This document shows positions 9,603 through 19,045 of a DNA stretch of 64,000 nt, piece by piece. Source of the DNA: an uncultured Acidobacteriota bacterium (GTDB taxonomy: Bacteria; Acidobacteriota; Thermoanaerobaculia; UBA5066); the NCBI GenBank assembly GCA_963779415.1, contig CAVZYA010000001.1:2016001-2080000 (forward strand), read 5' to 3'. The translations under genes were made by a program, and so were the position numbers. The stretch's first letter is position 1. Each line of letters opens with the position of its first letter. The notes beneath the pieces were generated by a model. The model was not told where the DNA came from, searched no databases, and worked only from the letters and a program-made list of their open reading frames with translations.

Positions 9603-10131
9603 ATGACCACTGAACCCGTCACCCGGCGCTACGAGATGGTCAACGTCCGGCCGGGCTACCTGATCATCGAGCAGGAGAATCACACCCTCGCCCGGCGCTC
9701 CTACTTCGTGGCGGAGCGGACCCCACCCCTGGAGGAGTACCGCGAGGGCATCGAGTTCTGGAAGCCCCAGGAGGCGGCCCAGACCTTCCAGTTCGACGTC
9801 CGCGACATCCTGACCGGCGAGGTGGTGCCCTTCGGCGAGCTGGCGGGGCTGCTCTATTACGCCTGCTGCGCCCGAGGACAGCACCGTCTACCAGATCGGC
9901 GACCTGGCCCACGACCAGCGGGTCTCGCTCTACGTGGCGATCACCACCGAGAGCGAGGAGGGACCTGCGCCCATGCCTCTCGAGAAGGTCCGGGTCCTCA
10001 ACGCTCTCTTCAACGAGCGCCTGACCAGCCCCCGGAAGAAGGTGCTGATCCTGCCCGACCTCTTCGGCCTCCGCCACGAGATCACGTACGAGCAGATCGC
10101 GATCGACTTCGGCCTCACGTCCATGGAATGA
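9603..10131 (+). CDS. Hypothetical protein, first gene of the redox operon (one frameshift near 9870)
   Basis: ORF 9603 joins the frame of 9934..10131 after LLYYACC; GAGGA SD upstream; 10 nt gap before the next gene. Confidence 0.7.
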
Positions 10132-10141
10132 GGAGCAGAGG

Positions 10142-10471
10142 ATGAAGATTCAGGAACTCGCGGAGCGGCTCGAGCTCAAAGCGGCCACCAAGGTCTTCGA
10201 CCGGGACGTGACGGGCGTCTACATCTCGGACATGGTCAGCGACGTGATCGCCAACGCCAAGGCGGGCGACCTGCTGGTCACCGCGCAGGCGCACGCCAAC
10301 GTGGTCGCCGCCGCCAACCTGGTCGACACCTGCGCCATCGTCATCACCCAGGGCAAGGCCCTCGGCGACGACGTGGTGAAGATGGCGGAGAAGGCCGAGA
10401 TCTCGGTCTTCACCACGGCCCTGAACCGCTGGCAAATGGCCACGAAGCTGTATGAGGCCGGCATCCGTTAG
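10142..10471 (+). CDS. DRTGG-domain protein
   Basis: VTGVYISDMVSDVIANAKAGDLLVT...AIVITQG pattern. Confidence 0.85.
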   Translation: MKIQELAERLELKAATKVFDRDVTGVYISDMVSDVIANAKAGDLLVTAQAHANVVAAANLVDTCAIVITQGKALGDDVVKMAEKAEISVFTTALNRWQMATKLYEAGIR

Positions 10472-10504
10472 ACGGCCGCCCCGAGGTGGCCCCGAGGTGA
10501 GGGC

Positions 10505-15279: not shown

Positions 15280-15283
15280 GGTC

Positions 15284-18200
15284 GTGGAACTCGTCAAGCT
15301 CCACATCGACGGCAAGCGGGTCATCGCCGACAACCGCATGACCATCCTGGAGGTGGCCCGCGAGAACGGGATCACCTCCATCCCCACCCTCTGCCACGAC
15401 GGGCGCCTCGAGCCCTTTGCCTCCTGCTTCGTCTGCGTGGTGAAGGTGCAGGGGGCGCGCACCCTCGTGCCGGCCTGCTCCACCCGGGTGGCGGCGGGCA
15501 TGGTGGTGGAGACCGTGAGCCCGGAGATCCGGCGTTCGCGCAAGGCGGCTCTGGAGCTGATGCTCTCCAACCACTTCGCGGACTGTATCGGTCCCTGCCA
15601 GCTGGCCTGCCCGGCGGGGGTGGACATCCAGGGCTACATCGCCCTGGCCGCACTGGGCAAGTACCACGACGCCATCGCCCTCATCAAGGACCGCAACCCC
15701 CTTCCCGCGGTCTGCGGGCGCGTCTGCACCCGCCCCTGCGAGGTCAAGGGCTGCCGGCGCACCCTGCTCGACGAGGCCGTGGGCGTCGACTACATCAAGC
15801 GCTATCTCTCCGACGCTCGATCTGGGCGACAAGGACCCCTGGCGCCCGACCGTGGCCCCTCCGAACGGCAAGAAGGTGGCGGTGGTGGGGGCGGGCCCGG
15901 CGGGGCTGTCGTGCGCCTACTACCTCGCCGTCCGCGGCTACAACGTCTCGATGTTCGAGGCCCAGCCCGAGGCGGGGGGGATGCTGCGCTACGGCATCCC
16001 CGAGTACCGCCTGCCCAAGGACGTGCTCGACCTGGAGATCAACCAGATCCTCGACCTCGGCGTCCAGATCTCCACCAACGTCCAGCTCGGGCGCGACTTC
16101 ACGATCGCCAGCCTGAAGCAGGGGGGCTACGACGCCATCTTCCTGGGGCTCGGGGCCTGGGACAGCTCCAGGATGCGCGTCGAGGACGAGGACTCCCCGG
16201 GGGTTCTTGCCGGCATCGACTTCCTCAAGCAGTTCGGCCTCAAGCGCAGGATCGACATCCACGGCAGGGTGCTGGTGGTGGGGGGCGGCAACACGGCCAT
16301 CGACTGCGCGCGCACCGCCCTGCGTCTGGGCGTCGCCGAAGTGCGCCTCCTCTACCGGCGCACGCGCAAGGAGATGCCCGCGAGCGAGATGGAGATCGTG
16401 GAGGCGGAGCACGAGGGCGTGAAGATGGACTTCCTGGTCGCCCCCGTGCGGGTGCTGCGCGGGGAGAACGGCCGGGTGGCGGGGGTGGAGTGCATCCGCA
16501 TGGAGCTGGGCGAGCCCGACCAGAGCGGCCGCCGCAGCCCCAAGCCCGTTCGCGGCTCCGAGTTCCGCATCGACTGCGATTTCGTCCTCGCCGCCATCGG
16601 CCAGGCGACGCGCCTCTCGGAGCTGGTGGACGGGCGGGTGCCCAACTTCCTCCCTCTTGGCGAGTCGCTGAGCCTCACCCGCTGGCAGACCGTCGAGGTC
16701 AACGAGCGGACCTTCGAGACGACCGTGGACGGAGTCTTCTCGGGGGGCGACGTGGTGACGGGGGCGGCCACCGCCATCGAGGCCATCGCCGCCGGACGCA
16801 AGGCCGCCTACGCCATCGACCGTTACGTGGCCACGGGCCGGGCCGAGCCCGAGCCGGTGGAGGTCTACAGCCGCAAGGACGCCTACCGAAGGTCAAGGTC
16901 GAGGACCTGCCCCCCGGCTCCACCGAGAGGCGGCGGAGCATGCCCGTGCTTCCCGCCGCGGAGCGCGCCCTCAGCTTCGCCGAGGTGGAGACCGGCTACA
17001 GCCGCGAGGACCTGCGCCGGGAGACGGCAGCGCTGCCTGGAGTGCGGCTGCAGCGCCCTCTTCACCTGCGATCTGCGGCGCTACGCCACCGAGTACGGGG
17101 CCGACCTCACGACGTTCATGGGCGAGGCCGTCGAGCACCCCGTCGACCGGCGCCACCCGCTGCTGGTGCTCGACCCCAACAAGTGCGTGCTGTGCGGCCG
17201 CTGCGTCCGAATCTGCAGCGAGCTGGTGGGGGTGGCCGCCTACGGCTTCGTCAAGCGCGGCTTCGACACCGTGGTCAAGCCCGCCCTGGGCGACTCCCTG
17301 CTCGACACCGAGTGCGTGAGCTGCGGGCTCTGCATCGGCACCTGCCCCACGGGGGCCATCGCCGAGAAGCTGCCCCTGGCCAAGTCCGGCCCCTGGAAGA
17401 CCACACCGGGTGGAGTCGGTGTGTCCCTACTGCAGCGCGGGCTGCCGGCTGGGCTACGAGGTCTCCGGAACCACCCTGGTGCAGGTCTCGCGCGCGGGTG
17501 ACGGCACCGACGGCAACCACTGCAGGAAGGGGCGCTTCGGCTACGGCCACGTGCAGTCGGCCGAGCGCCTGCGCTGGCCCCTGCTGCGCGTCGGGCGCGA
17601 GCTGCAGGAGACGAGCCTCGACGAGGCCCTGCGCTACTCCAGCATGCGGCTCAAGGAGCTCGCCCGCCGCTACGGCGGCGACCAGATGGCGGTGTTCGTC
17701 TCCCCCCGCCTGACCAACGAGGAGATCTACCTCGCCCAGAAGCTGGCCCGGGTGGCTCTGCGCACGCACAACGTGACCTCGCTGGCCCACCTCGTCAACC
17801 GCGAACTGCAGGCCCCGGAGGTGGTGTCCACGGCCTCCTGCGCGGAGATCCGCGACGCCCAGGCCCTGCTGGTGGTCAACACGGCCCTCGACGAGGAGAG
17901 CTTCGCGGTGGACATCGCCTGCAAGCAGGCCATCCGCAAAGGCGCCCGCCTCGTCTACGTCGGCCCCGAGGACAATCTCACCTCGCGCTTCGCCGAGTTG
18001 CACTTGCGTTGCCAACCCGGCGGGCAGGCGTTTGCCATCCTCGGCCTGCTGAAGGACTACGCCGCCCTGCAGCCGGGCGCCCTCGACGACCGGCCAGAGC
18101 TGGCCCAGGCGGTGGCCGATCTCTCCGACGAGCACCTGGAGAAGCTCTCCGGGGTGGCGCGCGCTGCCTCGCGCGAGGCGGCCGCCCTCCTGGCCAGGAC

Positions 18201-19045
18201 CATTCTCAAGGTGATGCTGTTCAACAAGGACTACCGAGGCTCGCGGCGGACCCACGACGAGCGGCTTTTTGCCGAGGCGGCTGCGGCCCTGGGCTGCTCG
18301 CTGCTCGCCCTGCGCGAGAAGGCGAACAGCCCAGGGGCTGCTCGACATGGGCGCCGACCCGCGCTGGCTGCCCGGCTACGTCGACCCCGGGGGCGGCGAG
18401 GCCCTGGAGAAGATGGAGAAGGAGCTGGGGGTCGTCCTGGGCGACCTCTCCCCGCCCGGCCTGGACGTGGCCCAGCTCCTGCGCGACAAGAAGATCAGGG
18501 TCGCCATCGTGCTCGGCGAGGACCCGGTGGGCGCCCCCGGTTTCCCGCAGGAGCTGAGCGACGGCCTCCTGGCCGCCGACTTCCTGCTCGTGGGCGACCT
18601 GTTCCTCACTCCCACCGCCGCCCTCGCCACCGTGGCCCTGCCGCTGTCGAGCACGGCCGAGACGAGCGGCACCATGACCAACGCCGAGCGCCGCGTTCAG
18701 CGACTGCAGCGCGCGGTGCCCCCCGCCGGCGGGATGGAGACCTGGGAGATCCTCGCCCGGCTCGCGAGCCTGCTCGGCTACCGGTTCAAGATGAAGTACG
18801 GGTCCGCCGAGGACGTCACCGCGGAAATCCGACGGGTGGTGCCGATCTGGGCGGGGCTCGACCTTGGCTCCGACAGTGCGGTCTGGGACGCAGGTGGCTT
18901 CAGGCTGCCCAGGGTTTCGTTCACCGGGCCGGGGGAAGTGCTTGCCCCCGTCCCCACCCTCGGGCTCGACACCCTGGAGGTCCGCTTTTCGGCCTGGTTC
19001 GACAAGATCTTCGAGAAGGCCCGCCGGGAGCTGCACGCCGTATAA
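15284..19045 (+). CDS. StnC/NfnA/SfrAB-like fusion: 2Fe-2S, GltD-like FAD/NADPH domain, Fe-S clusters and a cofactor-less molybdopterin-oxidoreductase domain (about 5 frameshifts)
   Basis: IPTLCH...CFVC...[47 protein letters not shown] and [22 protein letters not shown]...[22 protein letters not shown]. Confidence 0.85.

Follow-up and report, generated by a model that had tools for sequence, protein, structure and literature searches.

A conserved nine-gene locus of uncultured bacteria joins an Nfn-Bfu-type transhydrogenase to a putative redox-control module

Anaerobes balance their NADH, NADPH and ferredoxin by means of bifurcating enzymes of the Bfu type. To our knowledge, nothing is known about how the activity of these enzymes is controlled. 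Here we analyze a locus of nine genes (g1–g9) in the genome of an uncultured Acidobacteriota bacterium of the Thermoanaerobaculia (G000; ~69% G+C, 92% complete). The locus lies on a stretch of 64,000 nucleotides (contig CAVZYA010000001.1, positions 2,016,001 to 2,080,000), hereafter the window. Genes g7–g9 appear to encode a bifurcating transhydrogenase, whereas the six accessory genes upstream encode two DRTGG-domain proteins, a kinase-type ATPase, a hydrogenase-like iron–sulfur (Fe-S) protein and two proteins of their own kind. The enzyme adds a new member to a known family; the accessory module is an uncharacterized, strongly conserved variant of a cassette that is known only in passing.

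The closest solved relatives of the enzyme are NfnABC/Nfn-Bfu of Caldicellulosiruptor saccharolyticus (PDB 9bov), StnABC of Sporomusa ovata (8oh5) and an archaeal Nfn-Bfu (9n5u). In StnC, a [2Fe-2S] N-terminus is followed by a GltD-like domain for NADPH and flavin adenine dinucleotide (FAD), by NuoG-type clusters and by a catalytically inactive FdhF-like domain; Lys 170 is situated at cluster C7 and Arg 239 near the FAD (PMC10482914). The Nfn clade is described as residing mainly in Euryarchaeota and Firmicutes (PMC9304861). As for the accessory genes, a first-pass annotation of the window held that cassettes of this kind are usually reported in front of HydABC-type hydrogenases. The association is indeed on record, but it is thinly documented in print, amounting to one passing sentence in the available text of PMC8163306. 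The signaling pathway of group C and D sensory hydrogenases was still called unknown in 2026 (PMC13104023). The view that the locus itself had not been described holds: no paper on this nine-gene operon was found in a literature search to which the supplementary operon figures of PMC9304861, with their 'regulatory' genes, did not belong.

Several genes of the locus are interrupted by frameshifts in this assembly (see below), and the biology was inferred from intact orthologs in four related genomes (G004, G017, G011 and G022). Domains were assigned by Pfam, NCBIfam and PDB searches with both the window open reading frames and the intact orthologs. For the large subunit (g9), the intact ortholog from G017 (1268 residues) matched 9bov_A (E-value 8e-245), 8oh5_C (7.5e-218) and 9n5u_A (7.8e-195), followed by NfnB/GltD-type chains (~1e-84) and then by formate dehydrogenases (~1e-80). 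The B subunit (g8) matched 9bov_B (1.2e-251), 9n5u_B (5.8e-249) and 8oh5_B (1.2e-245) over its full length, with weaker matches to HydB of NiFe and FeFe enzymes (5e-219 to 3e-183). The initial proposal of a three-subunit Stn/Nfn-type enzyme is therefore borne out, as both g8 and g9 score higher against solved Nfn-Bfu/Stn proteins than against HydB, formate dehydrogenases or subunits of glutamate synthase. The domain content of the large subunit points in the same direction. Pfam detected, in the intact ortholog, Fer2_4 (residues 1–80), Fer4_20, Pyr_redox_2 (197–504), Fer4_Nqo3, Molybdop_Fe4S4 and Molybdopterin; the Molydop_binding domain was not found. Equivalents of StnC Lys 170 and Arg 239 are kept both in the ortholog, as aligned to 8oh5_C, and in the window, where the motifs read YIKRY and PEYRLP. 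Where formate dehydrogenases have a Cys/Sec-His pair, both the ortholog and the window have Val-Asn. We considered and rejected a formate dehydrogenase function for the large subunit, given this replacement and a pterin fold that is incomplete by Pfam.

Because of the best PDB matches, the StnC domain order, the retained Lys and Arg and the loss of the formate dehydrogenase-like pair, g7–g9 are classed as a member of the Nfn-Bfu (StnABC/NfnABC-type) transhydrogenases. By homology to solved and assayed enzymes, their product is predicted to be a three-subunit bifurcating NADPH:NAD+/ferredoxin oxidoreductase. NADPH would be oxidized at the FAD of the GltD-like domain, and the electrons would travel along the Fe-S chain of the large subunit to the site of flavin mononucleotide (FMN) and Fe-S clusters in the NuoF/NuoE-like pair. 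This pair would split them between NAD+ and ferredoxin; in the reverse direction, NADPH would be made from NADH and reduced ferredoxin.

The enzyme shares with StnABC and NfnABC the order of subunits (NuoE-like, NuoF-like, large), the order of domains within the large subunit and the inactive formate dehydrogenase-like domain. It differs in having a large subunit that is ~90–100 residues longer (1254–1268 residues in intact kin versus 1172–1178) and in its hosts, which are uncultured soil and wetland lineages instead of Firmicutes or Euryarchaeota. Nfn-Bfu enzymes are thereby extended into abundant soil lineages. A further difference is the presence of six conserved accessory genes upstream, none of which is mentioned for Stn or for the C. 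saccharolyticus Nfn in the available portions of PMC10482914 and PMC11829005. Four matches to POR_N (2-oxoacid:ferredoxin oxidoreductase) are present in the genome. Since neither PntB nor RnfD/E was found in G000, at its 92% completeness, the enzyme may be the principal connection between the pools of ferredoxin and pyridine nucleotides in this organism.

The nine genes are co-oriented and tightly packed, as claimed at the outset, with intergenic gaps of −20 to +33 nucleotides (Table 1). Start and stop codons overlap at the g4/g5, g5/g6, g6/g7 and g7/g8 junctions. Two gene boundaries of the first-pass annotation had to be revised. The true stop codon of g1 is at 10129-10131, and the 180-residue open reading frame that had been extended to 10145 ends in an out-of-frame tail; the start of g4 was moved to the GTG at 10879.

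Table 1. The nine genes of the locus, with their products as assigned by homology and the indels found by alignment to the same-genus relative G004
Gene	Window position	Strand	Product and domains	State in the window
g1	9603-10131	+	orphan protein, 175 residues in intact relatives	+1 insertion near 9874 (two frames by tblastn)
g2	10142-10471	+	single-domain DRTGG protein, 109 residues; PF07085 (E 3e-8, above cut-off)	intact
g3	10505-10873	+	second DRTGG protein, 122 residues; PF07085 (E 3e-5)	intact
g4	10879-11299	+	small GHKL Ser-kinase-type ATPase, SpoIIAB/RsbW-like; HATPase_c_2, HATPase_c	+1 insertion near 10896 (codon seven)
g5	11280-12620	+	group D (M2e)-type hydrogenase-like Fe-S protein, 446 residues; PF02906 (88 bits), 2x[4Fe-4S], PF04060	intact
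g6	12613-13014	+	133 residues, eight invariant Cys, Zn-ribbon-like	intact
g7	13007-13517	+	NuoE-like [2Fe-2S] subunit (NfnC/StnA/BfuC); PF01257	+1 insertion at 13319
g8	13514-15279	+	NuoF-like FMN/NAD subunit (NfnB/StnB/BfuB) with N-terminal extension and C-terminal 2x[4Fe-4S]	+1 insertions at 14039 and 14656
g9	15284-19045	+	large subunit (NfnA/StnC/BfuA); Fer2_4, Fer4_20, Pyr_redox_2, Nqo3-type Fer4, Molybdop_Fe4S4, Molybdopterin	+1 insertions at 15815, 17030, 17405 and 18329; −1 at 16888; in-frame 51-nucleotide deletion at 17503

How widespread is this arrangement? Using the g5 alignment as a query against one genome per species, we collected 79 loci and sorted them by domain-wise tblastn and a scripted count. 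The canonical order (g1-g2-g3-g4-g5-g6, then the NuoE-like, NuoF-like and large-subunit genes) was present in 48 of the 79, and in 45 of the 58 having enough flanking sequence, which confirms the anticipated co-conservation of accessory and enzyme genes. Another 18 loci end at a contig edge and are canonical as far as the sequence reaches. The 13 variants include three in which the cassette follows the enzyme genes (L073, L074 and L077), one in which g1 and g2 come after them (L054), two without g6 (L083 and L085) and two without g1–g3 (L084 and L088); five of the variant loci constitute a distant group, with g5 identity of 42–45%. Because the same order recurs in 48 of 79 loci, the nine-gene arrangement is far beyond chance. 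The record labels of canonical loci include Thermoanaerobaculia, Holophagae, Terriglobia, Vicinamibacterales, Eisenbacteria, Fibrobacter, Deltaproteobacteria/Polyangiaceae and Pseudomonadota, a few such labels being likely binning errors.

Within the phylum, g1 was found in 19 of 401 sampled genomes, representing 15 of 228 genera. In comparisons with same-genus genomes only the operon aligns (window 9480-19044 against contig C4 of G004), and the downstream sequence maps to other contigs or to distant positions of G004. Since the flanks are non-syntenic even within the genus, the nine genes move together, which points to rearrangement or horizontal transfer, and the locus behaves as a patchily distributed, mobile unit. 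In another genome of the genus (G003, L060:8558-9989), an insert of ~2.2 kb separates g4 from g5. It encodes, on the operon strand, two glycine-cleavage-H-like proteins of the lipoyl-carrier type (PF01597; 226 and 244 residues).

We next consider the hydrogenase-like protein g5. It has two [4Fe-4S] sites at the N-terminus, an H-domain in which all four Cys are kept (as judged from an alignment that included real HydA) and a C-terminal Cx2Cx4Cx16C motif (C400, C403, C408 and C425), giving up to four Fe-S sites. The position of Cys 299 is occupied by Thr, and a PAS domain is absent. One residue stands out. The Lys of the PCxxK motif (Lys 358), which we take to contact the cyanide of the diiron site, is replaced by Ile, Met, Leu, Thr or Val throughout the 64 loci of the nine-gene clade (Met in the window copy), whereas the other 15 of the 79 loci have Lys, according to tblastn alignments of the full set. 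The maturases are also scarce. Of five operon-bearing kin, one has HydG and HydF above cut-off; neither was found in G000 (92% complete), G004 (86%), G011 (96%) or G022 (99%), in a search that did not include HydE. Among 43 further genomes with the operon, 14 had HydG above cut-off; the completeness of the 43 was not reported, and one of them also belongs to the set of five. Because the PCxxK Lys is lost in 64 of 64 loci and most carrier genomes, this one included, show no HydG or HydF, sensing of H2 by g5 appears unlikely and Fe-S redox sensing more likely; g5 has probably lost its H2 chemistry.

The layout of g5 is that by which M2e/group D putative sensory hydrogenases are defined (PMC8163306). 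TamHydS of Thermoanaerobacter mathranii, a group D protein, likewise has two N-terminal [4Fe-4S] sites, four H-domain Cys and the C-terminal Cx2Cx4Cx16C motif, lacks a PAS domain and a conserved Cys 299, and is adjoined by a gene for a histidine-kinase-like ATPase, as far as can be seen from PMC8163306 and PMC13104023. Unlike TamHydS and group D, the whole nine-gene clade has lost the PCxxK Lys, and most of its hosts show no HydG/HydF. In addition, the partner here is a transhydrogenase and not a group A bifurcating [FeFe]-hydrogenase. The latter point had been recognized from the beginning, and both the Nfn-type PDB matches and the finding that g5 is the sole Fe_hyd_lg_C match in G000 agree with it. 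The accompanying label of a hydrogenase-style sensory cassette is accurate as to the group D layout but should not be taken to mean H2 sensing, given the lost Lys and the HydG/HydF that most carriers do not show. We also considered hfsABCD as the closest model and set it aside, since its sensor is described as carrying a PAS domain (PMC5707799).

The nearest solved relatives of g4, by PDB profile searches, are SpoIIAB (1.3e-6) and RsbW (0.008). Against the NCBIfam SpoIIAB model g4 obtained an E-value of 5.5e-10 with 39 bits, below the cut-off of 135. Residues of the N, G1 and G2 boxes are invariant among 40 sequences. Conservation is likewise pronounced in the DRTGG proteins. Across 40 sequences, g2 has invariant S29, D30, M31, S33, D34, T47 and H51; the invariant residues of g3 are A31, A32, D33, M35, S36, T50, G51, L52, Q56 and H59. 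Common to both are a D-x-M-S-(D)-V stretch, one Thr and one His. The PF07085 assignment of g3 is borderline, with 24.2 bits for the window copy against a cut-off of 25.2 and the G017 copy exactly at the cut-off. The set resembles the SpoIIAB/SpoIIAA and RsbW/RsbV/RsbU modules in combining what looks like a GHKL Ser-kinase-type protein of ~140 residues, its ATP-binding boxes intact, with adjoining small single-domain proteins that may be its antagonists or substrates. It differs in that the small partners are DRTGG and not STAS proteins, and in having neither a PP2C/PHP phosphatase nor a sigma factor.

The remaining two accessory genes encode uncharacterized proteins, in agreement with the initial reading. 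For g1, no Pfam or NCBIfam family was found, and only 64 representative clusters among 1.84 billion contain it, with no relatives detected beyond these. Its AF2 model (pLDDT 83) had no significant fold match (best Foldseek E-value 0.034); the best VIA-align hit (Z 5.2; phage baseplate pieces, 63 residues) was within noise, and a protein atlas search returned no usable match. The eight invariant Cys of g6 are arranged as CPxC, CPxC, CxxC and Cx4C. Its family comprises 394 clusters of 129–133 residues, with source names of either hypothetical or Zn-ribbon proteins. The AF2 model of g6 (pLDDT 76) gave no significant fold match, with the best Foldseek E-value (0.18) and VIA-align Z (3.2) within noise; a protein atlas search provided only Zn-ribbon and MetRS-knuckle-like leads. 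We regard g1 and g6 as new protein families and clade-specific parts.

A PHP phosphoesterase, noted earlier as missing from the cassette, is indeed absent: Pfam found no PHP domain in any of the nine genes, and more distant forms of the cassette include such a domain. Two such versions are L096:8469-18984, labeled WOR-3, and L099:9205-18217, labeled Aminicenantes. The gene order there is NuoE, DRTGG, kinase, HydS-like, DRTGG-like, PHP, a second HATPase_c, a small [2Fe-2S] protein, NuoF, HoxU-like and GltB-like (PF01645), with NuoF fused to GltD in the WOR-3 record. The WOR-3 cluster resembles a Bfu-type enzyme that has no hydrogenase but a module similar to glutamate synthase. Homologs of g2, g3, g4 and g5 (33–56% identity) adjoin NuoE/NuoF genes in these loci as they do here. 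However, these loci have the order g3-g4-g5-g2, include PHP and the second HATPase_c but neither g1 nor g6, and keep the PCxxK Lys; their partner enzyme consists of a NuoF-GltD fusion with HoxU-like and GltB-like proteins. Because the WOR-3 and Aminicenantes homologs carry PHP and the second HATPase_c and lack g1 and g6, the nine-gene operon is best described as a derived version of the cassette, which would have lost the former pair and gained the latter. A 128-residue open reading frame at L096:12936-13322 was rejected as a relative of g6; its translation, small and Cys-containing, looks ferredoxin-like and has no Pfam family. An intermediate form is seen in L082, L084, L087 and L088, labeled Alphaproteobacteria or Puniceispirillum, in which the PCxxK Lys is kept and g1–g3 are not nearby. 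Genes g4, g5 and g6 together with Nfn genes are found in L084, L088 and the contig-cut L082; in the first two of these, g4 precedes g5 by ~7 kb. The contig of L087 measures 1.8 kb and has little beyond g5.

In our proposal, g1–g6 are a module dedicated to control, through which the enzyme is probably tuned to the redox state of the cell. For this explanation in its entirety, including the nature of the enzyme and the reading of the indels as errors, our confidence is somewhat above even. According to it, g5 would descend from a group D sensory [FeFe]-hydrogenase that kept the [4Fe-4S] sites and, in this clade, has no diiron subcluster. It would report Fe-S redox poise, of either the ferredoxin or the pyridine-nucleotide pool, and not H2. 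The signal might be passed to the adjoining, translationally coupled SpoIIAB/RsbW-like kinase g4, which could bind and/or phosphorylate the DRTGG proteins g2 and g3 in a manner similar to partner switching. Control by phosphorylation, suggested by the first-pass annotation, is one conceivable form of this. The output would most likely be post-translational gating of the NuoE/NuoF bifurcating core, and g1 and g6 may occupy the places of the PHP phosphoesterase and second ATPase of other cassette versions. The most specific form of this idea, in which an ex-hydrogenase Fe-S sensor acting through a SpoIIAB-like kinase and the DRTGG pair as a new partner switch, together with g1 and g6, directly gates NuoE/NuoF bifurcation, is offered only tentatively and may well be wrong in its details. 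The locus represents a compact and strongly co-conserved candidate signaling chain of a sensor, a kinase and two small partners. Apparently its sensor does not require an H-cluster, and assays and structures already exist for the partner enzyme, so the idea can be tested directly. If a redox sensor and a DRTGG switch do gate bifurcation, no earlier case of post-translational control of a bifurcating enzyme would be on record, and the mechanism would be widespread in uncultured soil and sediment bacteria.

A number of observations weigh against this explanation. We know of no DRTGG protein that is a kinase substrate. No phosphatase (PP2C or PHP), STAS, sigma factor or DNA-binding domain was found in the nine genes or in the scanned flanking open reading frames. 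Moreover, the loss of the Lys and the absence of maturases do not track each other cleanly, since 14 of the 43 carrier genomes do have HydG, whereas none of seven genomes of the Lys-retaining distant relatives has it. A statement on the diiron role of this Lys was not found in PMC11376134 or PMC8163306. For TamHydS, the C-terminal cluster was reported not to be reduced under H2, and its role in signaling was questioned (PMC13104023). Finally, the tight translational coupling would be expected just as much of assembly factors, or of subunits made in stoichiometric amounts, as of a control module. The accessory proteins could then belong to a larger Nfn complex as additional subunits or points of electron entry, or help to assemble it. 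For instance, g5 might be an extra Fe-S wire or a docking site for ferredoxin, g6 might be a clamp that binds metal, and g4 might use ATP to drive assembly. Such a structural role gains from the start/stop overlaps and fixed gene order, which suggest stoichiometric co-production, from the up to four Fe-S sites of g5 and from a Hydrogenedentota paper in which sensory-type hydrogenases are the 'T subunit' of some BfuABC subtypes (PMC11406978). We nevertheless consider it fairly unlikely. Stn and Nfn were purified and solved in active form as three subunits without partners of this kind (PMC10482914, PMC11829005), g4 is nearest to the SpoIIAB/RsbW kinase group, and the PHP phosphoesterase and second ATPase of related cassettes look like signaling hardware.

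If the module does signal, its output need not be the enzyme itself. As the nearest relatives of g4 are anti-sigma factors, g4 could act as an anti-sigma factor or kinase on a distant sigma factor or regulator, with g2 and g3 as antagonists, and thus set the expression of the operon or of a redox regulon. In Thermoanaerobacterium, hfs deletions are reported to alter adhE transcript levels (PMC5707799). However, the nine genes and scanned flanks encode no sigma factor or DNA-binding protein, and the linkage of the cassette to NuoE/NuoF-type modules whatever enzyme is served, as in the WOR-3 and Aminicenantes loci, argues for a protein target in cis. A transcriptional output is, in our estimate, unlikely. 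Even less probable, indeed very improbable, is that g5 is a true H2 sensor coupling the transhydrogenase to ambient H2, a role that has been put forward for sensory hydrogenases of groups C and D. The group D architecture with all four H-cluster Cys (PMC8163306) and the HydG-bearing minority of carriers speak for such a sensor. They are countered by the replaced PCxxK Lys in every locus of the clade, by the failure to find HydG or HydF in this genome and in three of its four close operon-bearing kin, and by the lack of any other hydrogenase-domain gene in this genome.

That the frameshifts are real features of this assembly, as first noticed, is clear from DNA alignment with the same-genus relative G004 (90.7% identity over 9618 columns). 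It revealed ten frame-breaking single-base indels in five genes (one each in g1, g4 and g7, two in g8 and five in g9), nine of them insertions (Table 1), in addition to in-frame changes of +3 at 13493 and −51 at 17503. None of the ten is in a homopolymer run, and by tblastn the G004 proteins map to the window in switching frames. We tracked reading frames across the genome with a codon-position G+C model, scoring same-strand frame switches without a nearby stop. The tracker placed the shifts of the operon within a few bases and found ~485 candidate switches in the genome (206, 239 and 40 on the three contigs), or 1.1–1.6 per 10 kb of coding sequence. Twelve of 437 10-kb bins hold six or seven candidates, and the operon has seven by the same rule. 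A second NuoF gene, of the complex I type (C1:229613-230069), is likewise split. Contigs of 90–99% identical relatives from soil and wetland sequencing runs lack the extra base at five of the nine insertion sites among the matches listed (9873, 10896, 14656, 17029 and 17405); the source organism itself was found in none of the runs, the best share of the words of the stretch being 0.19. Because of the ~485 similar candidates genome-wide and the absence of the extra bases in relatives, the ten indels are most likely consensus errors of the assembly, a reading we hold with considerable confidence. The indel density of the operon, ~6 times the genome mean (seven candidates per 9.4 kb versus 1.1–1.6 per 10 kb), and an aligned 2.8-kb flank without a coding-sequence indel do not sit easily with it. 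The same contrast, ten frame-breaking indels in 9.4 kb versus none in the coding part of the flank, and their location outside homopolymer runs would be expected if the operon of this strain were a decaying pseudogene cluster and not an assembly artifact. We find decay quite improbable, as comparable candidates occur throughout the genome in similar clusters, complex I NuoF included, and nine of the ten indels are single-base insertions. There are no nonsense changes and no large out-of-frame deletions, every frame segment is still ~75–95% identical to kin proteins with its codon-position G+C preserved, and a three-contig assembly of the same genus is fragmented in the same way. Further frameshift candidates in the window are at 4219, 35497, 35857, 36076, 57298 and 61201, and gene calls in this assembly warrant caution.

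Among the scanned open reading frames around the locus, no neighbor is related to it and none is a regulator: an Ig-like-domain protein is encoded upstream, and an AMP-binding enzyme downstream on the opposite strand. No promoter-like site was found, nor a terminator-like site on the plus strand within the operon, in a scan that is uninformative for this organism. Metatranscriptome contigs of a ~93–94% identical relative cover g1–g3 (9653-10788) and g4–g5 (10866-12238); DNA carry-over is possible, and the contigs are no proof of a single transcript. That the locus is one operon is part of the same overall explanation as the enzyme, the control module and the erroneous indels, and we lean slightly toward accepting it. 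Elsewhere in the window, a tRNA-Arg(ACG) gene is located at 22020-22097 on the minus strand. Beside it, a stretch of ~100–130 nucleotides at about 22240-22376 is 70–94% identical to dozens of sites in two related genomes and may be a small dispersed repeat.

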